A stretch of 54,582 bases of DNA, the filler included, from Sphacelaria rigidula (lineage: Eukaryota), in assembly GCA_964200075.2 (NCBI GenBank). It is 3 parts of 3 records of this genome, joined end to end, with 100 filler letters (N's around TTAATTAATTAA, not from the genome) between each part and the next. Parts side by side here need not be neighbours in the genome. Positions count along the whole stretch, not along the records: positions 36,460 to 54,582 come from CAXNAA020000909.1; 2 more parts are not named here. The stretch is one strand, 5' to 3'. Made by a program: the position numbers and the translations under genes. Below are positions 14,640-52,557 of the stretch, piece after piece. Below the pieces are notes generated by a model that saw only the letters and a program-made list of their open reading frames with translations, searched no databases and had not been told where the DNA came from. Position 1 is the stretch's first letter; the number at the start of each line of letters is the position of its first letter.

Positions 14640-18131
<3,492 letters not shown>

Positions 18132-26640: not shown

Positions 26641-26690
26641 CAGACATTAACAGCCGATTTTATATTTTGGGGTTCATACAAAATACATGG

Positions 26691-26943: not shown

Positions 26944-26971
26944 ATGGATCAGGAATTTTTAAAACGTCTAA

Positions 26972-27374: not shown

Positions 27375-27498
27375 CACCGAAATACTCGTCAGATAGCGCG
27401 GACAGGATAGCGGCCTGCGCAAGTGTTCCGACAGAAAGAATATGAAAATATCAGCGATCGTACAGAACAGGAGCAGACATATATATATATATATATAG

Positions 27499-27735
27499 TC
27501 CACCCCAGTGATATTCGTTAACGCCCACGATGGAGTGGCCTGTGTACTTGACGGAGGGGTTTCCCAGGGTTTTCCCATCGAGGAGGAAGTGAAGGCACGA
27601 CGTCATAGGCACATCCCACAAGGAGTGGACGTGGTCGCATACGTCTGAAATCTGGTTGCTGCCAGGGAGCAACGCAGAGGACGCGAAGGGGATCGCATCC
27701 GAACACAAGCTATCAACATGAACCGTCCGCGTAAA
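27499..27735 (-). pseudogene. Ubiquitin-like domain fragment ending in Gly-Gly
   Basis: TVHVDSL...SNQISDVCDHVHSLWDVP..CLHFLLDGKTL...SIVGVNEYHWGG follows the ubiquitin pattern (IFVKTL..DTIENVKAKIQDKEGIP..RLIFAGKQL...STLHLVLRLRGG). Aligned by eye. In-frame TGA upstream and no stop immediately after GG. Confidence 0.35.
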
Positions 27736-29567
27736 ACCCGAAACGACTTCCTTGCGTCAGCACCTCAAGCTGGCAGTACTCAGGAAGACGGAAGTATGAC
27801 CCCGTGGACCCTAGCAGGAGGTACCTATACTCCTGTACCACGATAACCCCTCAGGAGGTATCACCGCGCTCTCAAGCGAGCAATGTAAAAAAGTAGAAAC
27901 ATTCATATATATATATATAGTGATCGCTTAAGTACGAGTACGGGAAAAAAAAGTAACGCAAGTTACGTAGCAGCAAGGAGGAAAATAAAATAAAAGGAGG
28001 AACAACAAAGACAGAATAGACCTCCTTCAAAAGCCCGGATGAAGCGCCTAGAAAAACGGCATGGAGTAGTTCGCCGACGAGAAAACCAAGAATGAGTAAT
28101 TATTGTATTTCCCCTTATGAAAAAATATAGCCATCCAACCATTCCTCCTCAAACAACCATCCGACCATCCATCCTCACAAAAAAAATCACAGAAAAGAAT
28201 GACGAAATACTATACAACAACGAAACCCATCATACGAAATGTATTAGAAATAAAAATTCTATAAAAATAGAGTTCTACAGAGGTGAAGAGGACCCGGCGG
28301 ACTAGTACAGGTGAAAAGTAGGAAGCCGTTGTAATGTATGAAAACGAAACAAAAGAAAAACGCAGACATGAAATAAATGCGCGAACAAAAAACCAGGAGG
28401 AGTAATCCGCCGACCAAAGCAGACACATAAGACAAAAACGTAAAACGGAAATACAACAAGAGAAGAAGAGTAGGGAAAAGGAAATAGGAAGCCGAAAAGG
28501 AACAGGTAGTAAAAAGCGTGCTGCGCATGCAGGTACCGCACAGTACCCCATGGAGGAAAATGACGGTGAGGTAGGTGAGATATCGCCGTCCATAAAAACA
28601 GGAATGACCAACATTGAAAGAAGACAAACACGAACACCGAAAATACAACTTTAAAAGTTGAGTAGGGAAAAGGAAATAAAAAGCCGACAAACGTACAGTG
28701 ACTTGAAATATAATATCATACGCTCTATGAAAAAATGTGGATTCGCAGTAAAAGGAAAAGGGGGTAGGAGGTCGTTGCAATGTAAGAAAACGAAAAAAAA
28801 AAACGCAGGCAGGAACAAAAAGCGCGTAAGAAAACGGGAAGACGTCGTCCGTCGTACACAAAAGCAGGAAACATTAACTCTCACATAACACAAACATGTA
28901 CACCGAAAAAACAAGAAGATAAGTTAAGTAGGGAAAAGGACATGGGAATGGTTGAAAGTATGAGTGACTACAAATAGAAAACCATACGCTCCTGTAAAAA
29001 TAGGTATACCTAGAAACGGAATAAATATACCAAAATAATAAATGGAGAAACGCAAGAAGAAAAACCTGACGTAGAAAAAAAATAAAAAGAAACAGCACTG
29101 ACAAGAAACAGCAAATGTTGAAGACGAAACGAAGGAGAAAAGCGAAGAAAAAAATAGAGAAAATAACTCCCTAAAACGTATGAAAATACAAGTATAACGT
29201 GAAAATCTTAAAAAGGCACAGAAGCAACGATGAAAAAACTAGAAGACCAGACTGTTACAATAGAAGAGAAAATAACTGAGAAAACGCAAGAAGAAACACT
29301 ACAGAAGAAAAAACGCGAGACAGAACCAAAGCAAGAGACACAATACTAAAAATACAATCGAAAGAAATAGAAGAAAAAAATCTGGAAGATAGAAAAATAA
29401 ACGGCAAGGGTGAATGTAGAAAATTGGAATTGGTATACTAATGTAAGAAAAGATACGACACAAAGCACGAGAAAATGAGAAAAAAGCGACAAGCGTAGGA
29501 AATAAAAGAAGTAGAAAATAAAGGGCAGAAAGAAATACCTACAAACGAAAAAATAAAAAATCGAAAA

Positions 29568-31698
29568 CTACGAAGGATGACGACGCTTCCCTCGAGAGGC
29601 GCCACTGCAAAGAGAACACGTACGGGGGGAATCAGGATCAGATCCTGATTGACCACAAGTTCTATGCAACACTCCTTCGCAAGATCCGCTGCAAGGCACC
29701 ATAGCAATGGAAGGCGGTAGAACACAGCCGGGCTCAGTGCAAGGCGAGTGAATCAGAAGCGGTAAGATGTCGGTGCCGTCGTCGGAGGTTCCAGGTCCAG
29801 TGCGGAAGGTCGGTGTAAGAGGAGAATGACGATGGTCAGGAATGGTGAGGTCGGCGGATACGGAGTCGGAGTTGGAGTCGATGGAGAGAGCGGGAGCTAG
29901 AGCAGACGGACGCACGAGGCGGTTAGAATTGTCGTCGGAATCGCTGTCGGGCCCCACAGGAAAGTTGGGTACACCCGGTAAACGAGAGTCGGCTATGGCG
30001 GCCGACGCACGGCGACGATTACGCAATACGCGAACGGCGTCAACGGCATCGACGACCTCGGCGCGGCGACTAGCGTGAACCTTAGCCTGGTCAGCCGTCA
30101 ATTCAACCCATTCGGCATCCTGATGATCCCAGAGTGCAAAACTGTCGCTGACGCGACCACCGACGCCGCCGGAGAAAAATAAGGAGTACGCGTGCTCCCG
30201 ACGGAAAAGAGTAGGACACACAAGTGCTACGAAATACGCCTCAGATCGCAGAGCTTCCATGGGGTGACCTCCGGTGGGGCATATCCACGACGAGCTAGGA
30301 AGGTATTCCCCATCCTGAACCATCCAAGTAACGATCGCGACGGGCGACGGCGTGAGAGGACGAAGAAACTCCTCCCTAAAACGTCGAAGACAGCTCCAGA
30401 AGTTTTTTTTTCCGAGTTCAAGCCGAATTTCCTTGACGGCTTGACGCTGTAGTTTACGGTATTCCGCCAAAGTAACGTTGACCTCGGTTTTGCTGACCCC
30501 CTTGAGTTTTGTTCTGAAGTGGCTCTTCCCAACATCCTCGGAACAGTAGCCGACCATCGCTGGAAGGAGAGAGTAAAGTGCGAGAAAGAGAGAAAAGGGA
30601 AATAATTAATAGTTAATATGAAAAGTAGATAATAAAGTAGAAGGTGAAAGTAGAGGTAGAGCAGGCGAGGAGAAAAAAAGCAGAACTATACAGAGAAGAA
30701 AAATAAGGAAAGAAGGGATAGACAGATGAGAAAAAATAGGTGAGTTGCAGATAACAGCTTTACATAGCGAAACACAAAGAAAATAACAATGGGAGGAAGA
30801 TAACAAACGAGGAGAAGAATGGAATAATGGCGAAAGCTTAACAAACAAGAAGAAAGGTGCTGGGAAGAGGGCAAAAAGAAGAGTGAGGATAGAAGGGAAG
30901 GTGAATAAGAAAAAAAAAACGCGATATCTTGTAAAAATAAAGAGAAAAAAATAAACGTAAGACGTGACAGAAAGTAGGGGAAAAAAAACTTGCCTTCGAA
31001 ACTTTGTTTGTTCCCCAGGGGCTTCACGTCGATTTTGAGGCGAAGATCTGGAGTCCATTCTTCGAAGCTCTTGATGGCGCTCCGAATGTCGGCATTAAGC
31101 TTTCGATCGTTGTCGTATGCCTTGACGATGCCCAACGTCAAGATTCCCTGGATGTGTAAGTTGCCTTTTTTTGCTCCTTGCTCCAGGCTGACGACGCCTC
31201 GTACCGTCCTCTTCTCGAGGAAGTGGGCAGCATCGTCGAAAACATTGGAAGGAATGTTCGCGGCGTCCCGAAATTTAACGGTTAATGAGAAATCGACGGG
31301 GTTGCCCGCCCCGCAGTCGATGATCGAATCGACGATGCCACCGGTGACATCGCAAATTCGTTCAGTAGAACGTAGAGGCGGCCGACCGCGACGCCCAGGC
31401 TGGTCGCTTGTAGCGGACGTGGAAGGAGGTGGCGCTTCAACCATAAATGGCTGGAGAGGTTGAGTAGGAGAGGTGTCCGCCGAGAGGGAGTCATCCGCCG
31501 CAGACAAAGCGGTGCGACGACGACGCGTCCTCCTCGTGCGCGTCGGCCCATCGGACGAAGATGGACGGACAACGCCGTTTGCAGTGGAAATTTGAGTGTC
31601 CACCACGGGCGCAGCATCTGCGGCACGGGTGAAACGCGCGTCATCGTTGTGGGGGGTCGACGACGCCGTCGTTTCTGTCGGAGGCAACGGAAGGGATG
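29568..31698 (-). CDS. Replitron-type HUH endonuclease/transposase with C-terminal PHD finger; exons 31698-30994 and 30559-29568 (5' exon(s) unresolved)
   Basis: Motif I DFSLTV, motif II SLEQGAKKGNLHIQG. Splicing a 434-nt GC-AG intron (AAG|GCAAGT ... CTCTCCTTCCAG|) gives in-frame QSFEAMVGYCSEDVGKSHF (motif III Tyr), then WMVQDGEYLPSSSWI.P..G.PM and Cx4Cx10Cx3Cx4Hx2Cx12Cx2C. No stop in either exon. Confidence 0.85.
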
Positions 31699-32582
31699 CT
31701 GTAGGGGGAACAAGGAAATAGGACGTAGGAAGGAGAAAGAAATGAAATAGTTAAGTACTGGAAGCGAAAAGAGCGTGAAAGCAAGAGAGGACGAGGAGAA
31801 AAGTCATCGAGAAGGAGAAACGAAGGAAACGCATGTAGAAATGAAAGAACTGATAAGACACATAGAACAAACAGGAGATAAGTAACTCGGGAAAAGAGGT
31901 ATGGTACGAGTTACGAATAAACAAAATAATGAGAGGACAGCTCTAGCTATCAACTGGAATCTTTGTGAACATCTATGTATTTTTGATGGACATAATATCC
32001 GCGCCAGGTGCAACAATGACCGCAAGGATACAGTACTTCGCATCAAAAGAATTGCGTCTCTTACAAATCGTTACGCGCAATGTAGAGAATGAGGAATCGT
32101 TACGATGGCGAGAAACATAAAAAATAATAGGGAGAAAGGAGCAGCGGTTCAGAAGCTGCCATTGGGTTAACCTCCGAAATGCCCTGTTCGGGCAAGGAAT
32201 AGGATGTTACAGAAGAAAGAAACGTACACAAAGGATGCGAAGCTCTCCAAAGATAAAACAGTGGAATATCGCGAATGGGGTTGAAAAGTAATCCACAACA
32301 TAGCGTAAAGAACGGAGCGAACCGTAGACGTACAGGTACCTGCAGAGAAATGCGACACGCACTATAACGTATGTTCCGAGGAGGTCCACGACCGCAATCG
32401 AAAATGCTACGAGTAAGTGGAAGAGAGTGAAGGTACGGTTGGGGAGCATTTTTTTTTTATGAGAATAGGATTGTTAGGAGCACTGTAAAATTCGATACAC
32501 CACTCACGAGATACGTGATAGTACACGAGGGATACGTAATCAATGTGCCAGAGATATCCCGAACGAATTTGCAGACGATAAT

Positions 32583-34660
32583 GCTATTACCCATAATATA
32601 GCGTGATGTACAATCGTTAGGAGCCCCTGAATACAAGAAGAATTAGTGCAAAAAGTGCAACCCTATCGTTGCATGGCACAGGAGACGAATGTAGACGGAA
32701 GCATTTGAGATACCGTAAGGAGTAAGAGAAGGACGATTGTAAGGAAAGGAGATAAATGAACCAATTAAAAAAATACAGAGAGGAGAATACTTACAAATGG
32801 TGGGAGAAGGAACGACTGTCAGAGGCGTCGGTTACTGGAAGAACTCCGAAGGAGGAACGCAGGACCAGCACGCTTCGCATCAACGCAGGAGCCTGAACTA
32901 CGCGGGATGTGTTGGATGAGTCGTCGTCGTTGTCGGAGTCCGATGTGAGAATATCCACAACGCCGTTGGGCGTGGTACCGTAAAAGGTCTGGCAAGAGGC
33001 GATCGCAAGACGCTGCTCCTGCGTGGACTTTGTCACAGGTACCTTATTCGCTGCAGAAAAATCCACGAGAAAGAGCGGAGGGGGGCGCAAACGGAGAGAT
33101 GAGGGCAAAGATAATGGTGAGAAAATTAGAAGAGGAATAACGGTAGAAATGCAAAAGGTGTATTTACGAAGCCACAGCGCTACCCAGAAAAAAAGAGGAG
33201 TAGGGGAAGTGAAGGCTTCTATCCACCATAAGTATCGAAGATTAATAGCGGCGAGAGCTACATGTTCACAAAAGAGAGAAAAAAATTGTATCGTGGTACA
33301 AAAAATTGTGCGAACGTGGTTGAGTTACAGCGAAAGACGAAGAAAGACATGACTAAAATAGACAGACAGTAGTACGTATAATACATACCGCAAAAAATAT
33401 ACTGAGTAGTGGAACGAACAGATAACCCTAAATAAAGTACCGATAGACGGGGGCCATAAGTTCGAGTAAGAGTAGAAAGAATATATGTCAAAATGCAATG
33501 TAATTTTAAAGCCGGACGCCCCGGTTGCTCTGTTGGTAACCCCGAACGCTCAGACGGTTGAGTATTGGGGTTAAATTCCCGGAGCCATGTGGGATATTTA
33601 TTATTGCAATCGATAATGCTATGACTCACTATATAGCGCAATCAACAATCGTTAGGTGCCCCTGAATATAAGCAGACTCCGTGCAAAAAGTGCAACCGTA
33701 CCGAAGCATCGCACAAGAGACGAGTGCAGACGGAAGCATTTGAGAAACCGTAGAGAAACAAACAAAATGGACGTATGTAACGAAAGGAGATGAATGAAAC
33801 ATGAACAAAAAAAATAGAGAAGACAACACTTACGTATCTTGGGAGGAGGCAGGACTCTCCGAGGCGTGAGTTACTGAGTGGTCTTCGAGGCAGGAAGGCA
33901 CGGAGTCGTGGTCGAGCACGCGCCGCCTCTTCGCAGGAGCCTGAACTACGCGGGATGTGAAGGCAGAGTCGTTGTCGTTGTCGGAGTCGTCGTCCGATGT
34001 GAGAATTTCCACAACGCCTTTCGGCTTAGTACCGTATAAAGCCTCGCAAGAGGCGATCGCAAGACGTTGCTCCTGCGTGGACTTTGTCACAAGAGCCTTA
34101 TTTATTGCAGAAAAATCCACGAGAAAGAGCAGAGGGAGGCGTAAACGGATAGATGAGGGCTAACATAATGGTGATAAATGAGAAAAAGACTACCGGTAGA
34201 AAAGCAAAAGGTGTATTTACGAAGCCACAGCGCTACCCAGAAAAAAAGAGGAGTAGGGAAAGCGAAAAGCGAAGGCATGCATCCACCATAAGAATCGAAG
34301 ATTAATAGCGGAGAGATCCGCGCTGAAATATCGAAAAACACACAGGAAAAAAACGTGAATGATGAGAAGACCGAGAAGAGGTTGAATGGTCCTATTATAG
34401 TAACACTGTGGACAGGGAGGCGGCTGTATGTTCACAAAACAGATGACAAAAATTGTATCACGGTACAAAATTTTGTGCGAACGTGGTTGAGTAACGGCGA
34501 AAGACGAAGAAAGACATGACTGAATTAGACTGAGAGTAGTACGTATAATACATACCGCAAAGCACATACTGTGTAGCGGAACTGTGAAAAAACTGCGAAT
34601 AAAGTACCGATAGACGGGGGCCACAATTTGGAGTAAGTGCTGAAAGAAAAGATGTCAAAA
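32583..34660 (-). repeat. Diverged tandem duplication of about 0.9-1.0 kb, each copy with an exon-like segment (32795-33050; ~33834-34105)
   Basis: Paralogous peptides VTKSTQEQRLAIASC...VV(D/E)ILTSD...SRVVQAPA. Both end at GTAAGT donors. The acceptor is intact only in the 33050 copy. Confidence 0.85.
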
Positions 34661-34989
34661 CACAAGGTAATATGAGCCAGTCGCACTGGTGGTTCAGTTA
34701 GCAATCTGGGCTATTTTCGACACCCTGTTCAACACTGAAGAGCGACTATGTCGTTGTATACAATAAACTATTGGACTATTGAAAATAAAGCGATCGGAAG
34801 GTAAAGCACTGCTGCAGTAGAGTGAAAAAAAAAGCACAAATTATAGATGGGGAAGGCGGGGGAAAAGAGTAAAGTATACTGACGTTAGCACGATGTCTGT
34901 GGTTGGAAGTAAAAATTGTGATCAGTGGCGCCAAATTGAAATCAAAATTCTAGATGAAAAAGGTGAAAAGACGGCAGCACAATATTGCC

Positions 34990-35310
34990 ACAGTCCCGGT
35001 GGCTCAGGTGGGAAACTCGTAACCCTCTTGCACTTGAGCTGTGGGGTTCAATTCTCGGAGAGACGCAGAATTTTCACACCATGCCCAACAGTGGAGAGCG
35101 ACCATGTCGCGGGTACAAAAATTCGAGTTAACGGTCTATAAGGGAAAGGGACTGCTGACCTCCTCTCGCGAAAAATATAGAAAAGGCAAGCACTGCAGAA
35201 GGAAGGTGGAGGACTAAAAACCAATAATAAAGATTAAGCTCCTGAAGAATGTAACTTCCTCCTGTGTGACCCCACCTGGTGCGTCCACATATACCGAAAG
35301 GTGGAAATTG
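34990..35310 (+). mobile_element. tRNA-derived SINE-like repeat
   Basis: A-box TGGCTCAGGTGG and B-box GGTTCAATTC, followed by a body that recurs inverted at 36895-37135. Confidence 0.6.
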
Positions 35311-35407
35311 GGGCACAGAAAAAACGGAACAAGAATTCACTACAGCAGTAAAGTTACGTCCTAGAAAGCGAAGTGGGAAGAGGGGGGCAAGGCTCTTCTT
35401 CACTCAC

Positions 35408-35726
35408 CCCAGCAGGAAATCGGTGCTTCGATCTGATGTATTTCTTCAGATCCTCCGCGACGTCGCGAGCGTTCTCGTTGTCGGAAGCTAGGAAGCTAAG
35501 AGCACCCATGAGGAACGTTCGATGACTCCGGCCACGCCTTCAGGAAGATATATGTTACCTTGAGATTTAAGGTCGTCCTTGATGTTGTAACCGTTCGCGA
35601 CTCCGACACAAGACGTTTACTCGGGAACGGTGATGGTGATGTGATGGGACGACATATAAATTTGTGGAGATCTTTTGAGGAAGCGCCGGGAAATAAAATG
35701 GATGGCGCGGCGGGGCGAGGCATAAC
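35408..35726 (-). pseudogene. Exon-like pseudogene fragment of a small unknown protein
   Basis: Bounded by CAG| and |GTGAGT. Reads VGVANGYNIKDDLKSQGNIYLPEG...SWVLLASDNENARDVAEDLKKYI once an 8-bp duplication (35483-35498) is removed. One upstream TAA. Confidence 0.4.
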
Positions 35727-36359
35727 CTGCGGGTTTTACAGAGCCGGTGCGTCTCGCAGATTACGTCAGTTTGACGATGGAATTAGCCCAAAAGAAATAA
35801 AACCCAACGTATGAAGAGAAAATTATAAAAGAGACGTGGAGATCAAAAGTTAAGCGGTTGACTTTACGGCCATTTGACGATGAAATTAGCCGAAGTGAAA
35901 AAAATGACGTACATAATCTGATAAAATTATAGCCGACAAATTAGCCGAAGTAAAAAAAGGGTGCACATAGTATGCCAAAATTATAGCCGAGGAGGTCAAT
36001 GTTGAAGTGGTTGAGATGTGCACTAGGCGAGGCGATATAGAGGCGGATCTTATTGATCAGTATTTATGTGGAAATGGGTGGAAAAGTTCTAAAATGGAAC
36101 GAGTAGAGGGTGACGACCTAAGACGAACGTTCGGCGTCTGATGCGCAACGCATGTTCAGTGCAGTACATGTGCAGTAGGCGAGGCGACGTAGAGGTGGAC
36201 CTTGTGGGCATGGGTTTATGTTATATACATTGGCGATGATGTATGTATTGAAGAGTAGTAATAGTAAATTAAATGTAGGCAATCGGCAGATGCCGAAGTC
36301 ACAAAATGGAATACATTGTACTCATGATCATGCCTGCCGTAGTCATCAGACCATTGACC

Positions 36360-36459
36360 NNNNNNNNNNNNNNNNNNNNNNNNNNNNNNNNNNNNNNNNN
36401 NNNTTAATTAATTAANNNNNNNNNNNNNNNNNNNNNNNNNNNNNNNNNNNNNNNNNNNN
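36360..36459. other. Artificial assembly spacer (44N-TTAATTAATTAA-44N)
   Basis: Same 100-bp linker as 18132-18231. Confidence 0.97.
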
Positions 36460-36550: not shown

Positions 36551-36786
36551 GTGTCTCCGGGCTACAAGCCGATGGAGGAAGGGGGGTGCCGAGTGTACCG
36601 AGGGATGCTGGGGTTCGTGCAGGCAAGGCTTTACGTGAAGGGCCGAGGAGACTTTCAGAACAGCAAGCGCCGTTCCATCACTGCTTTCTACCGAATATTG
36701 GCAAAACGGATCGCCTGTGGGGTGGCGGACCAGCCGATGGCAGTTCTGCACTTGGATGGGGACACCGGCTCGGCGTCGCCGAAACG
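36551..36786 (+). CDS. CHS-like exon 1 (visible): K..NSKRRS and DGD motifs
   Basis: tag|GTG ... CG|gtcagt; HLDGDT. Confidence 0.8.
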
Positions 36787-39700
36787 GTCAGTCGCGGGGC
36801 GATGCCTGGAAACTCGGGATCTTTTGAGGATACCGAGGGGGAGTTTATTTGCCCCGTGTATTGTTGCCCTGTCATCTCATCTTTTTCGAGCGCTGTCCCC
36901 ATTTTTCGGTATATGTGAGCGCATCAGCCAGGATCACATAGGAGGAAGGTCAACACGGGAGCTTTTTGGTTCCTTCTTTTTGCAAGTAGCACTCCACCTT
37001 CCCTCTGCGGTGCTTGCCTTTCACTGTATCGCGGGGAGGTTTCAGCCTTCCCTAATTGTCGTCGACCGTGACGTCGAATTTTGTGTACCCACGACGTGAC
37101 TGCTTCCTCATTGTTGAGCATGATGCAAAAAAAAACTCAATATCTCATGGCTTCACCGACACTCAAACCAACGTCCCAACCGTATCTTCCGAGGTTCCAA
37201 ATGGAGTCTCCGTGGCGACCGGCGTGGCCTTAGATGAACGACTGCAGGATGACATGTTGTCTATAGCCTATACCGCACAACTCTCAGTCAGCAAATATTA
37301 TAGCGTGTCCTCTCGCGAGCAGACGGGTGAGGCAGGGGTGTGGGTGAACACCTTATTCGATTTATGGCGGCATGCTCTGGTGTTTGACCAGTTCAGACCC
37401 CTGGGCGACTGGCTGTAACAAATCTACCTTATAGGGGAGGTACCGTGTCGTTGGGCGGTGCTGCAGGTGTGCTGACCTCTGTAGGTGTTGTGTTGTGTGT
37501 CACACCGGGAGACGTGTGATGGGTTGGCCTGCGAGGATGATGGAGTCGTCATGATGAGTCTCGTACACGGCGCTGGTTGTTGTCGGGCTGGATGGCCACT
37601 GTGCCGAGCGGTCGGTCGTATGTCGTCTCGCGTGCTCATGTTGCTGCGTTCCCCGTGTTTCCCAATAAATTCCCAACGAATTCCTAGCATGTGTTTGTAT
37701 TGCTGGCTTCTTTCTTCGTCTCTTCAATGTTTTGCCAGTAAATATTATGGATGTATGTCCTGTGGCCCCGCATGGTGTGTGTAATGGGTGCGTGCTGTTG
37801 TGGTGTGGTCCGATTCGATTCTGTCTACTCCCGCTGTCGCTGCTGCGTCTTGTTTCTCATTTTCTTGTCATGGTCGGCAGGCCAAATGCGGAGTCGAGCT
37901 ACGGGCTGCAAAATGTGGGCAAGATGATGCGGCTGATGCAGGGCTGCAAGAATGTAGGGGCCATCGCTTCGCAAGTGCGAGTGCTGCAGCGGAGCAGAAA
38001 TGCCTTGACGTTGATGCAGAGCTTTGACTGCAGTACCACATACGTGGGAGTGTTCGGGGGTTCCTCGCTGTGCGGACGAAGTATCGCGTGCTTCGGGATG
38101 GCGGTGATGTATCGATACAGGTGAGCTTCCCGGAACATCGAGTGCGCGCATATATATATGTATGCGCACATGCGTCGGTTTGTGCTCGCCCTCCACGAGT
38201 CCTTGCCTTGCGTGGGCGATGCAGCAGTGGTTCATGGTATCACCAAGTACACCATCCTATAGGACCCCACTGCATGTTTCGGTGGTCGATGCTTGGTGCT
38301 TGGTGCGTCGTGAGTGATTATCCTTGTGTCCGTCGCCATGCATGCGTGCTTATTTCAGCTACGTGGGGAGTATATACTCTGTGAAGGTCTCTGCATTGAA
38401 TCTGGAAAGTACACGATAAGAGGGTATGGAATCGTCAGACTCATACCCATGGGGTGTGGTAAAAATATTCATGTGAAGGTGTATTCATGGCGGTAATATG
38501 TTTTTCGTACCGACCAGTTCTGCTTGGGTATGTCAAAGTCGATATAATAGTCGCTGTCTCTCATTGTGCTGCACGTGAAATGCCCGTCCTGTTTTTTTTT
38601 TCCATTGTTTTCTGATTTGTTTCTTGTCGGCTGTGGTACATGCGTATGTATCCTCAGCGCTCTGTTGGAGAGCAAGGTTGAGGGGGTTCCTGCCCCGCTG
38701 GAGGCGTTCTCGCGAACGCCGGGCAAGCACCTGGTAGATCTCGTGAACTTGGATATGAACGAGGACCAGGGGATGACCACGTTCGTCATGCGGGTGAGCC
38801 GAGCGTTACAGGTCGCTGCGCACAGCTGTGTTTCGTTCCGCAGTTCGGGGAACTTCGTTTCGGGTGTATGATCTGCTCGCTGTGGCGTGGACATGGCACA
38901 CGAGTGAGGCGGATAGCAGAAAGTGGCTGGACGCTAACATTGAACTGTACTGTGTTTCCCGCGCGCTTTGGAGGGAATGTGGAATGCAGGCTACACACGA
39001 ATGTGCTCTTTGCTGAGCGTGCCAGTTCCTGATGATGCCTACATTTCAATGCGCCGTTGTGATTCAAATGAGATGTGTACCGTCGGGTTGTGAATGTTGT
39101 CTTCATATCTGGCAGGCTGGGTACGACACAAAAGTTTGTGTGGTGACTCGCTTCTATACCTACGCGCCCGAGACGCTAGCGGAGCTCATGGGACAGAGGC
39201 GACGATGGCAGGTGCGTGCGTCATATCCCAGCGTGTGCTATACTGTGGCGTGTATATTTGCATGTGTTTTTCAAAACAACTGTAGGTCGTTGGCCCCCTA
39301 AGGAACGGAGCGGGCTTTCCCGGTGTGGATTCTATCTGATTTCCCTTGCGTCGAGATCTACACCTCACTCCACCTGCGAAGAAACAATGGGAATGAAACC
39401 CGCGTTCAGTCCCGATAGCATGAGTGGCCAGTAGATATATGTACATGTGTATTGGAAACACGTGAGGGGCCTTCCAGAGTATTTTCGTAGAAGAGCATTA
39501 GCATCGCTTGCTACGACGTATGGGTACTGCGTAACCTAAGCGTCCACCCGTCCCAACCCCGACCTCCCCCGTCCGCGTTTGCCAGGCTGGGTACTTCGTG
39601 GGAATGCCTTCCCAGATCTTCGGTTGGCCGTCGCCGCACCTTCAGGTCAAGAAGTCGCGATGGCTCATGGCGGCGGTCGTGATGACCATGTGGGTCAATG

Positions 39701-42700
39701 CGTTCTTGTTGCCGGGAACGGTCGGCGTGGGGTTGGCACTCATCTTTGGGCAGGTGCGTGCACGGCAGTCAAGGGTTTTCCTGTTCATACCTCCTCTTCA
39801 TCCCTTGTGCCTGCGTTTCCGGGTTTCTGTTTTTTGTATTGTTTGAAACATCATGTCTTTTTGTGCATTTTTTTTTTTTTTTTTTTTTTCGTTTTTCTTT
39901 TTCCCTTTTCCTCCCCCCCTCTTCTCTTTCTCTTTTTTTTTTTTTTTTTTTCTNNNNNNNNNNTGTTTTTGTTTTTTTTTTTTTTTTGGCTGCCCCTACC
40001 CCCCCCCCCCCCCCCCCCCCCCTCTTATCGTCTCTTTCTCTGGACCAGAACCTGGTGTCGAGACATGAGCCCCATCTCCCCGTCGGTATATGCTTTTAAT
40101 TTTGAATTTGGTATTTCCGCGCAAATTGGATCTTGACTGATAATCCCGCCGGCCTTCACTGGGTCCGCTGTCGTCAACCACGTTTCCTCAGCAAGTCATG
40201 TTACGTTCTCAACGACTGAAGACAACATTAGTCGGGAGACATGAATCAAACCAAATTTTACGAAATATTTTGGATGTGATTTCAAATCCCGGAATATTTC
40301 GGGGGTAGGTCGTTCCATATGGACCGACCACGTGGGCGCGGGGCGGCTATTAATCGGAACTGAAAATTCCATGTCTGTACCCGCAAACTTGTTATCCGAA
40401 ATTTCATGTCCTTCTTGCCCGCACACTTGCTATTCGAAATTTCATGTCCGATCCTCTTTTTCTTGTTCTGGCGTGCGGACAGGCGTACGTCCGATTCGGG
40501 TGCACGGGCCCGTGTGGGGTTGGGGGCAGCCTCCCAGTTCTGCTGTCGGAATCCCTGTTCGCGGCTGGTGTCTGGGCATTTTGGATTATTTTCATAGTAA
40601 TGACGATGGACAAAGCCCCTAAGGAGGTAAGCGGGGGGGGGGGCTAGTATTTATGGATGCAGCGCTGCCAGTTTTGTTCATCTGAGTGATCCGTCTTTTC
40701 TCATTTCATTTATTGCTCCCAAGGAGGCCAGGCGGTGGTGGTATCACTCTTAGCATGAGTGGGTGTTCGGCTACTTTTTTTTATTGTTCGTTTTTGTGAT
40801 GCGTTTTTTTTTTTCTATGGGTCTGACAACGTTGCTGCACCAGCTAAAGCTTTCAAGGCTGTAGTAGTCAAGCCCCTTGTGGCGGGAACGGGAACTCCTT
40901 GCTCCCTCATTTTCAATGATTTGTTTTTTTGACTCTTTCCTACTTTTTTCCTGGGTGTCGGCCCCTTGTCATCGTGTCATGAAATAAGCGCAGTTGAAGG
41001 GCCCAAACGCCGAGAGGCCATCGTTTGCCAACCCTTCATGCGGCGAAGATTCGGTATCCCTGTCGTTTTGTTTCCTGACAATGCTCACGCCGTCTCGTCT
41101 TCTACCGTGCGTTTTTAAAATATCTGCTTCTCAATTTTGTGAAAACGCCCAACCTGTTCGCGAGTCTTGCGACGGGAGAGCTGCGCAACTTGTTTCCCAG
41201 ATTTGGATACCTGTTGAGAGCCCGTCATGGCACCCCAAACACGACCTATGAAGTGTGTGGGAGTGCCCCACGGTTGGTGTTGCGATTGGCGGGATATTTC
41301 GGAGAGTTACCCTACATGACACAACCTTGGAATTGTCGCAACGGAAATGTCCTGATTCGTTTCCTGGTGTAGATCTTGAATTTTGGAGCCCCTCGACGAG
41401 AAACATCTGGGGCCAATAATGTCTAAACCCCTACCGCGGCATTACGTGGACGACCTTTCTCCCCCTCTTCCTTCCCTGAGCAATGCCACGGTAGAGATCC
41501 ACGTTTTGCACAAAATCTTGTCTGGTTCAGGGGCTCCTAACGATTCTTGACGTCGAAGAATATGGGTCAGGGCATCCGCGCTTGCGAAAATCATTCGGAA
41601 CATCCGTAGCACATTGTAATAGTAATTCATCCTGGCGTACTCACATATTTCATAAGCCGTGTTTTGGATGAGATGAAGGGCTCCTAATAAGTCCAACCTC
41701 GGAAAAAATATTCCTGCACTCCTACCGTAGCATCACTCTCTCGTGTGTTGCTTCCCCTCGAATCTTTCAATCGGTCATGTGTTTGCGATACAGGTGCGAC
41801 ATCTCTGTCGATTGTTCTTCTTGGCGATGAGCGTCCTGTCGGTGGTGTTGTGCGTAGCTACGGCGTTTGTGTCTGCGGGCGTCCAGGTTTTCCTGATTCT
41901 GTTGGTGGGGCTTAATCTTATCGTCGGGCTTGCGCTCACATACGATTGGCGGGAGTGGCCGCACCGGCTGCAGGAGATCATTCTTTACGTGATCTTTTTA
42001 TGTGAGCTACATACATTTAATGTATAGTTGATGTATAGTTAACTGAACTGTTATTTGGTGGTGGTGGGATATAGTCCGTATGTTGTGTATTGTTTACCCT
42101 AATTTTATTCTTATTTTACTCAATAGCGTAATGTCTCGCCGGTGCATACACAAATCAGTACATTTGCGTCCTGTTTCTCCATACTTTACCCAAGTCAAAA
42201 ATCAACATTCTCGGAACAGTATTTTACACTAGACGCTCGGACTGGAGAGGGAGAAAACTTTCACACGTGTCCGATTATCATTTTTGTTTCTGATCGGACT
42301 GGTGAAAATGATGGTACCACCCATGGGCGTGATATTTTCTTGTTTCATTTATTTCGCTCTCAGTCGGTACCATACATGGCCTCGTGACGACTCCGTACTC
42401 GTAGGTCAAGGGAGTCGGTCCCCTCTCTCCTCCCCCCATTACCGGTTACATGGGGTATCGGCTTATCAAGCGCTGGAAGTGAACATGATGTCGATTCAAC
42501 AGACGAGGTACACATCCCACGGGTGGCGTTCATGGTTGGCTTTTCATATTGCTGGTAGGACTCTTCGATTAAATAGTGCAACAGGCGACTTACGTTTGAC
42601 TGTGCAGGCACATCGCTGTGACTTCATAGCGCTGCGGTGCGGTTCGCTGCGTACATCAACACTGCAGCTTTACACATTCTCGTCTCAGGTAGTAGGGAGG

Positions 42701-44624
42701 TTATCTTTTGTGCGCCTTCAGAGGAACATCTAACGTCCAAGATTTCAAGGCTGTGGCCTGTAGGGTATACGAGCTGAGGTTGGTGTACTTGCAGCGGCAT
42801 GAGGGAGATATTTCAAGGGTCGTGCGAATTGATGATTCGTCTGGAAATTACTCGACTTCAGTGTAATAGATTCGTTCCGTACGAATCAATCCTTGAGCTT
42901 TGTTTTCAGCGTTGCAAGCCAGGTACGCGCAGCCCAGGCACATGGAATGGCGCGAAAATTGTGCGGAGAGCTTTTTGACCAACGGTCAACTTTTTTTCAC
43001 CTCCTTCTCGAGCAATTAAACAGGCCTGAAAAATTGTAGATTTGCTGAGATGCAAACCAACCGGCAATGATGCATCCGAACCGGGAGATATTTCATCGAG
43101 AAATATCCTTCTGAACCATGCTACACTGTTAGGAACAGGGCTCGATACCCCGCCGAAACACATCGGAATGTTCGTACATGGCATGCCAACCAGACATACC
43201 GAGGGTTGGGGGAATCATTGCTGGTTCGAATCACCATTTCTACGATTTTTGAGGCCTGGTTGCTCGAGAGAGGAAGGAGAAAAAATTGACCAGGGGTCAA
43301 CAAAATCTCGACGGAATCAATCTTTGCGCCATTCGACGTGCCTCGGGTGCGCGTGCGTACCTGGGTTGCTTGCACCTGAAAACGAGGCCCTAGGATCTTA
43401 TTCGTACGGTAAGAATCAATCACACAACCAAAATTCAGGAATTTTCCACATCTTCGACAAAATGTATATATACCAACACTTCTGACGGACAAAAATATAC
43501 CGCGTGAAGTAGGGCCCTATTGCAACTGTTGATCATACACTTTGAGTATTGTCCAAAGTGTGTAATTTTCATAACACAAACTTGCAAGATTCCCGTCCGT
43601 ACCAATGTTGCATCTTATGTCCTGTCTCACGCTTTGTACATGTTTCTCACCCACGCTCTCCCCCAACTCCCTTCCTCTACCCCCCGTCACAGACGCTATC
43701 CAGCCGATGATCACTATGTACTCTGTGGCGAACATCGACAGTGCTTTATGGGGCACCCGCTCCATAGGCGACGTCAATGCGACGGCCAAGGTGCTCGACG
43801 CGCCCGAGGCGCCCTCTCTGCCTCGCAGGCGACGCCGCCGACATCGTCGGCGATGGAGCAGGCCGAAGCGGGCGGGGCGGACGCCGGTTTTCCCCGATTG
43901 CTCCACGTCCGACGCCACGCAGTCCACCGCAGGGGGCAGCAGTTTGTGGGAGGAGGAAGGAGAGGGCTCGTCATCTGACGACAGCGATGATGTCGGAGAA
44001 ACGGAGTACTATGCTTACTTCAATCGGCAGTTCCAGGAGCGGTGTCAGCAGGTGGAGGGCTCGTGTAGTACGTTAGCCGACGGGAAGGGTCCCCGGGGTG
44101 GTCATCAAGCGGAACGGGCGGGCCCCGCATGGGGGTGGGATGGCGGGACAAGGAACCCTCAAGTGGCGGGGGAGGCGCGGTTAGCGCGGCCTCGAGAGAG
44201 GCGGTGGTGTTGCTGCAGGTTTAGGCTGACGCTGCGGGCGAGGAAGCTGATGGTGTTGACCGCGTGGGTGCTGCTCAACATGGTGGTAACGGCCGTCTTC
44301 TTGCTGTGGCATTTGCATCTTGTTGTGGTGTTGAACTTTTTCAGTAATTTCGCGGGGCTTGTGACGATTGTGGTGGCCGCCAGGGTGGAGGCGCATAAAC
44401 AGCGGCGGGTGACAGCACCGTCGTTACCACGGGGGAAGTTGGGGGACGGCTGCCATGATGCCGGAGTTGGGAAGGGGCGCGAGGGTACGGGGGGTTCGGG
44501 GACGGGCGCGACGAGCAGCGCTAATAGCGGGGCGTTATGGTATGGGTGGGCGCCGCTGAGCGCCATGTCCACCTCGGTTGTGACCTGGGATGGTTCTGAG
44601 GATGGAGTGTCGAGGGCTGTATGA
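36551..44624 (+). CDS. Chitin-synthase-like processive GT2 glycosyltransferase, 5'-partial, 8 exons: 36551-36786, 37881-38120, 38658-38793, 39116-39211, 39586-39753, 40483-40626, 41794-42001, 43693-44624 (2160 nt, 719 aa)
   Basis: All junctions are GT-AG and phase-compatible (2,2,0,0,0,0,1). Motifs in CHS order: VK...NSKRRS, LDGDT, VGAIAS, MQSFDC, MYR, NEDQGMT, TYAPET...QRRRW, TM helices, YSVANIDSALWGTR. Confidence 0.9.
36895..37135 (-). mobile_element. Second copy of the SINE-like body, inside a CHS intron
   Basis: Shares TTTCGGTATATGTG, CTCCACCTTCC(C/T)TCTGC(G/A)GTGCTTGCCTTT and TCGAATTTT..GTACCC with the reverse complement of 35060-35310. Confidence 0.65.
37881..38120 (+). CDS. CHS-like exon 2
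   Basis: cag|G CCA ... TAC AG|gtgagc; VGAIAS, MQSFDC, AVMYR. Confidence 0.85.
38658..38793 (+). CDS. CHS-like exon 3 (catalytic-base motif EDQ)
   Basis: cag|C GCT ... CGG|gtgagc; LDMNEDQGMTTFVMR. Confidence 0.85.
39116..39211 (+). CDS. CHS-like exon 4 (QRRRW)
   Basis: cag|GCT ... CAG|gtgcgt; TYAPETLAELMGQRRRWQ. Confidence 0.9.
39586..39753 (+). CDS. CHS-like exon 5 (transmembrane)
   Basis: cag|GCT ... CAG|gtgcgt; 168 nt, hydrophobic. Confidence 0.85.
40483..40626 (+). CDS. CHS-like exon 6 (transmembrane)
   Basis: cag|GCG ... GAG|gtaagc; 144 nt, hydrophobic. Confidence 0.8.
41794..42001 (+). CDS. CHS-like exon 7 (transmembrane)
   Basis: cag|GTG ... T|gtgagc; two to three hydrophobic helices. 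Confidence 0.8.
42820..43470. mobile_element. Foldback/MITE-like element in the last CHS intron
   Basis: Long diverged inverted arms (e.g. CCGTACGAAT...GTTTTCAG...CCAGGTACG...AGGCCT versus their complements at 43240-43415). Ends approximate. Confidence 0.7.
43693..44624 (+). CDS. CHS-like terminal exon (WGTR motif, low-complexity tail, extra TM hairpin)
   Basis: cag|AC GCT; YSVANIDSALWGTR; stop TGA ending 44624. Confidence 0.85.
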
Positions 44625-47600
44625 CTGCAGGGGGGAGGGAGGGGGGAGGGAGGGGGTGGAGTGTGACTATAAAAGGGTGAGAAGCAGCTGACGATGAGAT
44701 CGGATGTAGATGAGGGTGCGGCAGTCGAATGGCCTGAGCAGGTTCCGCGAGTGGAGTGGTTCGTGATGACTCGTGGCGAGCTTTCGGTTCGTTTTTCCTG
44801 GCGCTTTTGGTTGGGATATTTTTTTGCCGGAAGAAAGTTAGAGAGATACGGGAGCATTGTCGGAAGAGGTTTTGTGTGTTTTTGTGTGTTTGGGCGCGCT
44901 CAGCATTTTTAGAGTGGGCTGGGTGAGGCTTCGGGAGTATTTTTACCCGCGCACATCCACATGTATGATGTCGTGTTCCGCAGGTCGCGCATGGTCACTG
45001 TCGGGTGTTTCTCGAGACCCGCGGTCGAAAGGGACATGTTTTACGCGAGCGAACCCCCGCTCAAGACCGATTATGCGCTGTTTTTTTGCGCTGTTGGGAA
45101 CAAGTGTTGTCCTCTCTCCCCCGCTCTCGATCGATGAGAGATGGGAGAAGGAGGGAGAGATGGATTGCATTTAGTTTCCATGTATGTACGGGCAGCGACA
45201 GCCACGACTGCTTCAAAAACGTTTATTGCGTGTTTTCTGTCGTCAGTGTTGTTTTGACGAATTTTCGAACCCGAGGTGTTTTCTTGTTGCCTTCTTTGAT
45301 ACGGGTTTTGGTCCGGATTTACCGCGTCCCCTCTCTCCCCTCCTTTTTTTTTGAGGTCAGTCGGTCTTACGGTTGCGTGGTTTGTCTTATTTTTCTTCAT
45401 GACACAATTTTTTTTTTCCCCTCTTCCGCCCGATGCACACGCAATACGTGGTCATTGATGGCTTAAGAAGAGGAACACACACACACACAGGTGTACATTT
45501 TTCATATGCACGGGTGGTATCTAATTTTGATCAGAGAGCACCGCTCACGTATTGTGTACGTACGATACCAATGTTTTTCTAGAATTTTGGGGCGAAGTGC
45601 TGTTCCGGAAGAGTTCCTCCTTTCCGTCCCGCTGTCCCCGACAAATAAATGCCGAACTTTCCTCCATCACCATGTGTTGTCCTTTTGGAAACTATTAAAA
45701 CGTCATCGCATGTGCGTGTGTAGTAGTTACGAGTATTAATGAGCTAGCTCGAGGCCCTTGGGGCCTCTTGCCCCCTCCTGGGTCTTTCTTTTTCGTGTTC
45801 TGCCGCCCGCTCCGCTCCACGCGTGCTTCCCCCGNNNNNNNNNNTTTTGAAAAAATTAAAAAGTCAGCGCGTGTGGGGTTTGTGGAATTAAGCGTATTAA
45901 TGGGCTTGCCCGAGGGCCCCCCCCCCCCCCCCCCCCTTAAGGGTTTTGTCGTCAGCACGCGAAGAAAAAAAAAGTCGAATTTTTACAGCCATGTCGCTTG
46001 CGAAGTGCTCCTTCGTCATAACTATGGTGTTTCAGTATGGCAGCAGTGTCTCGGCCGTAGACAGCTTTTATTTTTTTGTTTCCCCCCTTCGAGTCGTGTG
46101 CTCCTTGCGCCCTCCTTCCGCAACATGGAGGGTATATCCTTTTTGCGTCGCTTTCTCTTGTCGCCCCCCTCTCCCCCCTCCCCCCTCGTGTCGTCGCTTT
46201 TCCGTGGTTTGTCAATGAGCAAAATAGTATCGTGCTGTGTTAGTGAAGGTGGGGCAATCGGAGTAATGACAAGGCAGCGGGAAATTCTCCCCTCCCCCCT
46301 ACCGGCTCAGCCGTCTTTGAAAGTCTGCATGACGGGGTGCTGTTCCTGCCTCCTTTCGATAGTAATTTTTGTGCCGTGTTCACGTGTGGTTTGTGGTGAT
46401 TGTTGGTTGCATATTTTCTGGTGAATAGAAGGAGTATACTGCGTGTGGGTGACTGAGGAGTGAAACGTGTCAGTGTCGGTGTTTTGTGCGTCTGTTTCCT
46501 TGTTTCGTGATCATATTTTGACGATGATGGGCTCTCTCTGCGGGCGTGGGTATATCTATGACCAGTTATGTATGATGGCGGGTCGATTTTCGTCATGACT
46601 GGAGCGAATTTGGGCGGCTTTGAAGCGGCAGGGGGTCGATATTTCATCGAGTTTTCACACTGCACACTATTGGAGGCTTCGCGGGAATCATCGCAAGTGT
46701 GTGTCAGTTGGAGTGGCGGTAATACGTGAGTTCCCGAACCGGTTCTTGGATTGGTCCCCGGTTCCGGGCCGGGTTCGTGGTGTGCTGTTCCGTTGTTCCC
46801 TCGGTGAAGGTTTGCGAGTTGACTGCCGCACTCGTTGACATGCGAGTTTGTGGTGAGGGAAAGTGAGGCAAATGGTGGACCGGTCCGGGCTGGGCCGGGC
46901 GATGTTACTCTTTAGATTTGCGTGTCTGACTTTTGTGGCGTTTTTTGTATTTTTTTTCCTGCATGTCTGGCCGGTCAGTCCCGTTTGTGTTTCATTATGT
47001 CACATGAATTCCCGGATTATGGTGGGTGCTTCGTGTTCCGGGTTTGGGCGGGGGGGCGGGAGGATCGGCTGCTGTGTGATTTGTGTCTTTTTTTTTTTTT
47101 CGTCGTCATCGCCCTCTGCGGTGGGGGAAGCAAAGGAGTCTGTATAGTAGAAGCGGTATGAACGAGGAGGCTTTTGGATCTTTTTGACGATTTGGGGAGA
47201 GTTTACGGGCGCCCCCCTTTTTTTTTCACGAAGGAACGGAGGGAATCATGAATGCCGTGCGTGATTGCTTCCTTCGGTTTGAATCATGACAGCAAGATTA
47301 TTTCGTGCGGGAAAAATTCCGCCTTCTTTCCAGTATCATCGGTGAAATGCGATGGTTTTTCGGCGCGGGGGAACTATGTGCTTTATTTTATTTTATTTTT
47401 GTGGGTCTCGCTATTGGTTCGCTTCTTGTGCCGATGGAGAGAGGGCGGGCAAGAGAAATGCGGAACTGGGCTCTCTGAGCTGAGGACTTCATTGCACGCT
47501 GTCTCTGTAGAATAGGAATGTGTATGTATAAAACAATCATATCGATATACCAAGCGTTGGTATGCGCAGGATAGGCATGACTCAGCAGTCATCATGACGT

Positions 47601-51275: not shown

Positions 51276-51481
51276 TGTGACGATTTATAGGCAACCGATT
51301 AGACTACCGTACAGTCAGCGCTGACTGTACGGTAGTCTAATCGGTTGCCTATTAATCGTCACAGAAGTTAGTCGTGGGGGTTCGATCCCCGTCACTTTCA
51401 CTCCGAGGAGGGCGACTCCCCTTGCCAGTGCTGTTCACGCTGACTTTACGGTAGTCCAATCGGTTGCCTATAATTGTCACA
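51276..51481. mobile_element. TGT..ACA element with 44-bp TIRs and 4-bp TSD (ACTT); Ginger-like MITE
   Basis: ACTT on both flanks. Removal restores gypsy frame FHVQVQERVAAER. The TIR is present three times. Confidence 0.75.
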
Positions 51482-52130
51482 ACTTGAACGTGGAAACGTT
51501 CTTCCAAGTCGAAGACACCTTGCAATGCACGCTTAATTTGAACATCCAAGACATCACAATCCCATTTCCCCGCTGACGAAGACGTCAACTCTGAGAGAGA
51601 CGTCTGAGGAGCGTGACCAAACATCACGTGGAACGGCGTACTATCGTCACGACGACGATACGCTGCATTGAGCGCCCACTGAACCACAGGCAATACGTAT
51701 CCACTCGGAAACCGCTCTACGCTGCTCGATAAACATAAAGCGAAAAGCACGTACTACTTTCTTGAGCATGCGTTCGCGCGTGCCGTTAGACCGCGGAGAA
51801 TACGCTACCGCAAAATGGTGATCAACGTGCAAAGCCTCTCGCAATCGGGCCAAGATTGTCTTCTCGAAATGCATGGCGGTATCACTTACCCACACACGCG
51901 GCACCCCCGAAGTTATGCACCAATTTTGCGAGGATGCAGCAGTCGATTCAGCAGTACACTGCACAATAGATGAGACGACAACACTGCTACTGGTTCCAGA
52001 GACACGAAGTTGCTCAATTCATCCATGATCCCAAAAACGAAACCCAGACATCATCCGACAAACCTTGGGAAGCCAGCGGGTCACTCTCGCCCACGTACAA
52101 GGAGTCAAAATGAACGACTTCATACAACAC

Positions 52131-52557
52131 GGGATCTTTCAAATTGGGGGTGGATCTTTTACTGGGGATGAGAAACCCGGAGACTTGAAATCTTCGTATC
52201 CACACCAAATTCGAAATATTGTTTTATTTCTTCATCTATTCTTCGCTATTGACAACTGCTACACGCCGTAGGAAATTGCATTACGATCACCGAAATGTTG
52301 AGGTCCTAGGTAAAAAATCGGTTTCATGGAATTTTGGGCGTCCGGCCAAAATGGTTCCGAAATTGTTTTCTCACCTAGGATCCCAACATTTCGGTGATCG
52401 AAGTACAATTTCTACGGCGTGTATCAGTTGTCAATAGCTATCAGTAGGTGGAGAAATGGAACCATGTTTCGAAAATTTGGTGTGGATATGAAGATTTTAA
52501 TTCTCCTGTTTTCTCATCCCCAATAATAAAGGATCCATCCCCAATTTGTAAGATGCC
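52131..52557. mobile_element. 427-bp foldback MITE inserted in the gypsy C integrase
   Basis: Almost entirely an imperfect palindrome (GGGATCTTTCAAATTGGGG... / ...CCCCAATTTGTAAGATGCC). It splits HGTMP from EVVHFDSLY. TTA on the right flank (PIF/Harbinger-like, uncertain). Confidence 0.85.

Follow-up and report, generated by a model that had tools for sequence, protein, structure and literature searches.

Eukaryotic chitin synthases join a GT-A domain to a membrane channel and carry their motifs in a set order: (T/C)xxNE, DxD, QxFEY, (G)EDR, Q(R/Q)xRW and (S)WGT(R/K). Most of the known family 2 glycosyltransferases (GT2s) of brown algae belong elsewhere, since sections of PMC11468063 assign about two thirds of them to the cellulose synthases and cellulose-synthase-like proteins (CESA/CSL) and others to the dolichyl-phosphate glucosyltransferases; the word "chitin" is absent from the text and three supplements of that source, and "hyaluronan" and "NodC" are absent from the supplements. 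A chitin-synthase-type GT2 tied to brown-algal genomes is nevertheless described for the phaeoviruses (parts of PMC5122149 and of bioRxiv 10.1101/2025.02.06.636530), and the former source defines an "ESV" class within division 2 for the EsV-1 enzyme, of which it describes the integrated copy as transcriptionally silent. Here, we describe positions 36551–44624 of a 54.6-kb stretch of DNA (Sphacelaria rigidula, assembly GCA_964200075.2; the whole stretch is referred to as the window). The plus strand in this region reasonably probably holds the last eight exons of a nuclear, intron-rich gene for a processive membrane GT2 that belongs to a very divergent, chitin-synthase-like brown-algal clade, with N-acetylglucosamine (GlcNAc) as a likely constituent of its product.

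Our literature search returned no paper on a chitin-synthase-like gene that brown algae themselves encode and that bears introns. An earlier note on this DNA had proposed such a gene with an unrecognised glycan as its product and possibly of viral or other lateral origin, and its claims are taken up below where the results bear on them.

An eight-exon gene model

The eight exons (A to H, Table 1) join into 2160 nucleotides (nt), corresponding to 719 codons and a TGA stop without any internal stop codon, and all seven introns run from GT to AG. Our gene model and motif scan thereby reproduced exactly the figures of the earlier note, namely eight phase-compatible exons and 719 amino acids (aa) with DGD, ED, QRRRW, transmembrane helices and WGTR. 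Junctions were set by tblastn of a homologous protein of 866 aa (P0001, retrieved using exon B, the second exon, as query), by a junction scan and by frame reading. Against the window, P0001 matched in eight plus-strand blocks with E values from 6e-12 to 3e-63 (3e-37, 7e-39, 1e-22, 2e-15, 1e-27, 6e-12, 4e-28 and 3e-63 for exons A to H, respectively), and these single-exon values place the gene match far above chance. Overall identity between P0001 and the window model was 75.5% (502/665 aligned residues), with exon-wise values of 85% for exon A (P0001 residues 185–266), 87.5% for exon B (263–342), 89% for exon E (420–476), 76% for exon G (531–600) and 49% for exon H (602–864).

Of all junctions, we regard the exon F acceptor (GGACAG, directly before 40483) as the least certain, since the scan put a shorter alternative slightly higher; we kept 40483 because the AY that it adds is conserved with P0001 residue 477. 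At junction 5, a non-canonical GC donor favoured by the scan was replaced after frame reading. Within the 719-aa model, nine 19-residue windows reached a Kyte-Doolittle mean of at least 1.6, four of which overlap to leave about six distinct hydrophobic segments, some located between QRRRW and WGTR and others close to the C-terminus.

Sequence, profile and fold comparisons point to chitin synthases

Among solved structures, phmmer retrieved Phytophthora sojae Chs1 (PsChs1; 7wjm) as the top match (E 4.8e-7) over residues 332–660, which include both QRRRW and WGTR, and a six-sequence profile again ranked PsChs1 (8e-11) before Candida Chs2 (6e-5) and Xenopus HAS1 (0.0035). In the profile alignment, the family paired with PsChs1 motif by motif: CVTVCNES with CITMYNEG, ASQVRV with CGQLTV, MQSFD with AQHFEY, FGMAVMYRY with LPGAFSAYRY, NEDQ with AEDR (E495, the residue mutated in entry 7wjn), GQRRRWQAG with SQRKRWLNG, and LWGTRS with SWGTKG. 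The order of motifs is thus shared one-to-one with the chitin synthases, i.e. C(V/I)T..NE, DxD, Q.F(D/E), ED, Q(R/K)RRW and WGT(R/K), as are the membrane helices between QRRRW and WGTR and those after WGTR. The window itself encodes DGD, ED, QRRRW and WGTR, with EDQ in place of EDR and QSFD in place of QxFEY, while the first motif is found in the homologues only. Across six sequences (the family and two members of the sister group described below), D160, D253, D255, Q309, E378, D379, Q415–W419, T622 and R623 were invariant.

A structure was predicted with AlphaFold2 for the homologue P0001 (37 sequences) rather than for the truncated window product. The model reached a mean predicted local distance difference test (pLDDT) score of 73, with a core (residues 111–620) mostly above 90, a disordered N-terminus and no predicted N-terminal membrane helix. 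Foldseek ranks 1–20 against the PDB (18 rows listed) comprised 17 named chitin synthases (S. cerevisiae Chs1, C. albicans Chs2 and PsChs1) at probability 1.00 (E 3e-18 to 4e-15), with 7xs6, described only as a membrane-integrated glycosyltransferase, at rank 1. The next 13 rows were hyaluronan synthases (E 4e-12 to 5e-9), and from rank 34 onward bacterial and plant cellulose synthases appeared (E 1.5e-7 or worse). For the homologue P0001, the predicted fold is therefore that of a solved chitin synthase, with a GT-A domain and a membrane channel as in the eukaryotic enzymes (Pfam families PF03142/PF01644) represented by 7wjm, Candida albicans Chs2 (7stl) and S. cerevisiae Chs1 (8k3w). TM-scores normalised by target lay between 0.47 and 0.62, but identity in the structural alignments reached only 13–18%. 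The class I hyaluronan synthases (Chlorella virus HAS, 7sp6; Xenopus HAS1, 8smm) share the GT2 fold and QxxRW and form the second-best fold group, but they were clearly weaker matches than the chitin synthases in both sequence and fold, with TM-scores by query of 0.27–0.30. Cellulose synthases and CSL proteins (BcsA, 4p00; plant CesA, 6wlb) are likewise processive GT2s with D, DxD, ED and QxxRW, but their fold match was 10–11 orders of magnitude weaker than that of the chitin synthases, and the present gene has WGTR. The earlier note had asked whether the gene would group with CSL families, which these fold comparisons answer in the negative, and its assignment to a GT2 of the chitin-synthase kind agrees with both the best solved-structure match and the top of the Foldseek ranking. 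As leads only, ESM Atlas neighbours included named chitin-synthase clusters as well as "hypothetical protein" clusters devoid of a Pfam family, the latter accounting for three of the ten rows shown for P0001.

A number of observations weigh against this assignment. The Pfam model Chitin_synth_2 (PF03142) scored 16.7, 19.6 and 21.9 bits for P0001, P0002 and P0004, respectively, short of its cut-off of 27, and did not match the Pylaiella protein (P0003) at all. Three sites that are otherwise conserved in chitin synthases differ (EDR to EDQ, QxFEY to QSFD, and PGxF to FGMAV). In an NCBIfam scan of five proteins, NodC (TIGR04242) scored only 10.8–17.4 bits against a cut-off of 550. In a tree with few named anchors, the family clade stood on a long branch apart from the typical chitin synthases, which left its placement relative to divisions 1 and 2 uncertain. 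An Ectocarpus protein was not found among the named matches, in a search that was limited by length and shared words and hence weak. Finally, the wall constituents given in parts of PMC12223506 are cellulose, fucose-containing sulphated polysaccharides and alginates, with chitin unlisted.

The profile results can be refined further. The window exons alone did not match Chitin_synth_2 in a Pfam scan of 13 plus-strand open reading frames (ORFs), where the sole match was a sub-threshold one of Glyco_tranf_2_3 (18.5 bits) to the ORF of the QRRRW exon. Of 28 longer and more distant relatives, 19 passed the Chitin_synth_2 cut-off, three scored below it and six had no match (E ≤0.001), and two sister-group members barely passed (30.8 and 28.7 bits). 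NodC scored in four of the five proteins and was the top NCBIfam family in three, over the DxD-to-QRRRW core, and CelA scored in one (12.3 bits, cut-off 699). This NodC core match is far under its cut-off, and the scan of bacterial and archaeal genomes described below revealed no relative. With regard to the altered sites, chitin, hyaluronan and NodC synthases have an R after ED where the present family has Q. EDQ, QSFD and FGMAV are common to the brown-algal sequences, with the sister group having EDY/EDF, Q(A/V)(F/L)E and VGMSV instead. The family thus differs from the chitin synthases as a separate, long-stemmed clade below the Pfam gathering score and with a disordered N-terminus. By analogy with the solved enzymes, it most probably works like a chitin synthase even though it fails Pfam chitin-synthase membership.

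A conserved brown-algal family with shared intron positions

In a search space of 5.8 billion clustered proteins, the relatives recovered were P0001 and three "unnamed protein products", these three all of brown algae: one of 800 aa from Pylaiella littoralis (50.7% identity to the window model), a partial one of 516 aa from Discosporangium mesarthrocarpum (59.6%) and a partial one of 515 aa from Ascophyllum nodosum (55.6%). The family is thus already in databases, but only under that designation. HMMER searches over 1.84 billion representatives yielded 185 matches at E ≤0.001, of which 53 at ≤1e-10 and eight at ≤1e-30, and beyond the brown-algal clade no match of full-length scale exceeded 36% identity in this set. 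A profile-type search with the family alignment added one fungal and one actinobacterial protein only, and 185,579 bacterial and archaeal genomes gave 124 pattern matches and no relative. Each of the four named or close relatives indicates a brown-algal affinity, which makes this suggestion of the earlier note probable.

We compared 156 sequences (155 proteins and the window model) with P0001, and in 59 of these, counting P0001 itself and the window model, the best segment reached at least 45% identity. Most were exon-sized fragments, with ends at P0001 residues 185–188, 261–263, 342–343, 388, 420, 476, 531 and 600–602. Because these ends coincide with the modelled exon boundaries, the intron positions are taken to be common to the whole family. 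Moreover, the 866-aa frame of P0001 has no interruption, lies on a contig no longer than 4416 nt and crosses all seven modelled junctions. From this sequence arrangement we infer that P0001 represents a spliced transcript, and its gene, an orthologue of the present one, appears to be transcribed.

In a first tree (33 rows, 628 columns, quick search), in which the named anchors were the fungal and the actinobacterial protein, both long-branched, the five family members formed a clade with a support of 100 and a stem of 1.54. One step further out, a clade again supported at 100 added P0011–P0013, P0018 and P0014. These five sister-group proteins are 24–36% identical to the family and share with it GCR(V/I)Y, the KG...GKRxS loop, DGDTGS and an ED whose next residue is not Arg. 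Two sister-group sequences have odd insertions resembling translated read-through introns, and the group is probably eukaryotic, as far as its sequences tell. A second, careful tree of nine rows, rooted on four sister-group sequences, supported the family clade at 100/100 and, among the named algae, joined Pylaiella with Ascophyllum (89/98) and set Discosporangium beside this pair (83/90). Pylaiella and Ascophyllum were also paired in the first tree (SH-aLRT 99), while Discosporangium fell outside this pair only in the rooted one. The window model and P0001 stood at the base on short branches without a fixed order, and the host may thus lie just outside the three named lineages (83/90). The tree points to a host among the brown algae or in a lineage close beside them, and does not set it within the Ectocarpales–Fucales pair.

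Predicted mechanism and product

By analogy with the solved chitin synthases, the cytosolic GT-A domain would bind a uridine diphosphate (UDP)-sugar and a divalent metal via DGD, the aspartate of ED would act as the base that deprotonates the acceptor hydroxyl, and the Trp of QRRRW, together with the WGTR loop, would hold the growing end. The beta-linked chain would then be extruded through a membrane channel, predicted to be built from some six helices that lie between QRRRW and WGTR, plus two C-terminal ones (helices 442–613 and 766–826 of the model). To our knowledge, WGTR is confined to chitin, hyaluronan and Nod-factor synthases, and for this reason a product containing GlcNAc is favoured. 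Judged by analogy, the chances that the product does contain GlcNAc, as chitin, a chito-oligosaccharide or a mixed polymer, are about even.

The same fold and processive mechanism might instead serve a product without GlcNAc, such as mannuronan (the enzyme being an alginate synthase) or another matrix glycan, an alternative that is unlikely without being far-fetched. The clade lies below the Pfam chitin-synthase cut-off, its named members are all brown algae, and the changes from EDR to EDQ, QxFEY to QSFD and PGxF to FGMAV may, judging from the sequences, signal another donor or acceptor. In addition, the expert survey of brown-algal carbohydrate-active enzymes (sections of PMC11468063) finds no known activity for the remaining GT2s, allows for mannuronan synthases among them and sees no homology of brown-algal GT2s to the bacterial alginate polymerase Alg8. 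Against this stands the retention of both WGTR and QRRRW, together with a fold that is closest to chitin synthases and then to hyaluronan synthases. Chitin and hyaluronan synthases all use UDP-GlcNAc. Furthermore, the NE of the first motif matches TMYNE of the chitin synthases, the sister clade shares the special features of the family and is unlikely to stem from alginate producers, and no Ectocarpus protein appeared among the named matches. Alginate-named families were also absent from the NCBIfam matches of the five proteins (E ≤1), in a library for which the presence of an Alg8 model is unconfirmed.

A bolder and rather improbable variant would have the clade be the missing brown-algal matrix polymerase, either as a mannuronan synthase or as a NodC-like maker of GlcNAc oligomers that feed the GT23 fucosyltransferases of the NodZ/FUT8 type, which are expanded in these algae. 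Brown-algal GT23 enzymes are predicted, in parts of bioRxiv 10.1101/2025.04.25.649966, to fucosylate chitin oligosaccharides or glycoproteins. If this were true, GT23-extended GlcNAc oligomers could be, for example, fucan primers or the GlcNAc ligand of gamete recognition, and in either variant a chitin-synthase fold would have come to serve a polymer with which it had never been connected.

Returning to the favoured chitin-synthase-like enzyme, the clade is conserved, intron-bearing, apparently transcribed and equipped with counterparts of all chitin-synthase motifs, which suggests either an unrecognised GlcNAc glycan or a scaffold turned to another sugar. The earlier proposal of an unrecognised product made by a host chitin-synthase-like gene was in this respect right in kind.

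The 5′ end is missing at an artificial join

The first exon present is preceded by a splice acceptor and has no start codon, as the Met at 36572 corresponds to internal residue 192 of P0001. The contig that carries the gene starts at 36460, which is 91 nt upstream of exon A and directly behind an artificial linker (Table 1). The 12-mer at the centre of this linker, TTAATTAATTAA, is self-reverse-complementary and has TAA in every frame, and we take it to be a spacer for joining contigs. The window thus consists of at least three concatenated contigs (up to 18131, 18232–36359 and from 36460), and neighbours across the spacers may therefore not be adjacent in the genome. A (TTG)n microsatellite (17890–18131) abuts the first linker and a poly-C run directly follows the second one, both of which are typical of contig ends.

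When P0001 residues 1–184 and the corresponding stretch of the Discosporangium protein were searched against the whole window (tblastn, relaxed settings, both strands), no credible match was obtained (best E 0.32). The absent N-terminal part amounts to about 184–185 residues of the 866-aa P0001, encoded in at least three exons in the homologue. In the structure model, residues 120–159 constitute the initial strand-helix-strand unit of the catalytic domain (pLDDT >90), and in the alignments the N-terminal part of the homologues carries CxTxCNES and (F/I)LD(A/G), pairing with the TMYNE region of PsChs1. Since 36551 follows an acceptor and the N-terminus of the homologue is absent from the window, the 719-aa product is not the complete enzyme, and the window model represents the 3′ four-fifths of the gene. 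The earlier note had called the gene frame-intact, which holds for the frame, open over 719 codons, but not for the gene, whose 5′ part is lost at the join.

The most economical reading of this loss is a contig or assembly break. That it should instead reflect a real deletion, leaving a dead, truncated copy, has only a small chance of being correct: while the start codon and the first 184 residues are missing from the 54.6-kb window and the neighbourhood is rich in transposons, the break falls exactly at the artificial linker 91 nt upstream, the 719 codons are free of stops and frameshifts, and all seven introns have canonical splice sites. Moreover, every catalytic motif of the encoded part is intact, and the 75.5% overall identity to P0001 rises to 86% in conserved columns.

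Origin of the gene

The seven introns at family-shared positions and the transposon flanks (Table 1) are those of a host gene, as the earlier note had proposed. Given these intron positions and flanks of transposon rather than viral origin, the evidence favours an old, vertically inherited host clade. The note's further suggestion of a lateral origin found no support, as there was no full-length-scale match above 36% identity outside the brown-algal clade and no bacterial or archaeal relative, and as the sister group looks partly eukaryotic.

A viral origin is likewise unsupported. Under such a scenario, an EsV-1-like phaeoviral chitin-synthase gene would have been endogenised and captured by the host, gaining its introns later. 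It could appeal to the integrated EsV-1 copy in Ectocarpus (parts of PMC5122149), to a chitin synthase in an endogenous giant-virus region of Undaria (sections of bioRxiv 10.1101/2025.02.06.636530) and, as a lead only, to one ESM Atlas neighbour cluster that is mainly Nucleocytoviricota. Nevertheless, this course of events seems quite implausible in view of the seven family-shared introns, a family tree that roughly follows host relationships, the absence of viral domains from the 21 flanking ORFs that were scanned for domains, and the lack of any full-length-scale match above 36% identity outside the clade among the 1.84 billion representatives. In addition, the EsV-1 copy in Ectocarpus is described as silent and assigned to a class within the typical division-2 enzymes (parts of PMC5122149), whereas the present gene has introns, transposon flanks and an apparently transcribed orthologue, and its clade fails the corresponding Pfam model.

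Very improbably, the contig derives from a chitin-producing contaminant (an oomycete, fungus, diatom or other epiphyte): within the analysis, this gene is the one indication of the host taxon, and the rooted tree sets the window lineage apart from the three named brown algae (83/90), but the nearest named proteins belong to assemblies of three different brown algae, where their contigs measure 24.6, 175 and 661 kb, the tree order of the named algae roughly follows species relationships, and oomycete and fungal enzymes are remote matches only.

Features of the window

Table 1. Positions of the exons, motifs, assembly features and mobile elements in the window
Feature	Position	Strand	Details
Exon A (first present, not the gene's first)	36551–36786	+	236 nt; acceptor GCGTAG, donor GTCAGT; GCRVY, KGRGDFQNSKRRS loop, LHLDGDTG
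LDGDTG (exon A)	36752–36769	+	DxD metal and UDP site
Exon B	37881–38120	+	240 nt; GAIASQVRV, MQSFD (counterpart of chitin-synthase QxFEY), CFGMAVMYRY
Exon C	38658–38793	+	136 nt; NLDMNEDQGMT
NEDQGMT (exon C)	38758–38778	+	ED catalytic-base motif
Exon D	39116–39211	+	96 nt; AGYDTKV...GQRRRWQ
GQRRRWQ (exon D)	39191–39211	+	
Exon E	39586–39753	+	168 nt; interface helix and first membrane helices
Exon F	40483–40626	+	144 nt; variable loop and membrane helix SLFAAGVWAFWIIFIVMTM
Exon G	41794–42001	+	208 nt; two membrane helices and DWREWPHRLQE loop
Exon H	43693–44624	+	932 nt including stop TGA (44622–44624); QPMITMYSVANIDSALWGTRS
LWGTRS (exon H)	43746–43763	+	
C-terminal membrane helices (exon H)	44247–44375	+	two helices, after a charged low-complexity linker
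10-N gap	39954–39963		within intron 5, in poly-T/poly-C low-complexity sequence; coding sequence untouched
Artificial linker	36360–36459		44 N + TTAATTAATTAA + 44 N; identical construct at 18132–18231
Replitron HUH endonuclease	29571–31750	-	two adjacent ORFs (345 and 354 aa; 37.5 and 37.8 bits, cut-off 28.5)
Copia-type reverse transcriptase and integrase (RVT_2, rve)	15537–16932	-	fragments 15183–16932
Gypsy-type reverse transcriptase and integrase (RVT_1, RNase H, rve)	23816–25954	+	fragments 23472–25954
Reverse transcriptase/RNase H	53124–54414	-	fragments 51355–54414

The window is eukaryotic and repeat-rich, with a GC content of 41–55% in 2-kb bins. The two ORFs at 29571–31750 resemble a Replitron-type transposon in which an intron or a frameshift divides the transposase between them, with Replitron_C scoring 25.9 bits in these ORFs, below its 27-bit cut-off. 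The retrotransposons in the window are broken into several ORFs. Between 28000 and 36000 there is a strong strand asymmetry (AT skew 0.25–0.50, GC skew 0.16–0.20), and a unit of about 1.05 kb is tandemly duplicated at 32569–34671 (five repeat families, spacing 1035–1167, 83–91% identity). A 78-nt stretch at 32612–32689 has an inverted match of 77% at 41468–41545 in intron 6, perhaps as a small dispersed repeat. Poly-T, poly-C and CT-rich tracts with 10-N gaps occur at 39850–40030 in intron 5 and, downstream of the gene, at 45835–45844.

Implications

For the window itself, what matters in practice is that the join leaves the gene model incomplete. For the family, curated Pfam thresholds miss this clade. 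The polymerases of alginate and of fucans are still unidentified in brown algae, and the remaining brown-algal GT2s resemble nothing of known activity (sections of PMC11468063). Older work cited in parts of PMC4700764 attributes gamete recognition in Ectocarpus to GlcNAc residues carried by the female gametes, and an unrecognised GlcNAc glycan could tie in with this recognition. The clade described here offers a concrete, assayable candidate for brown-algal glycan synthesis.

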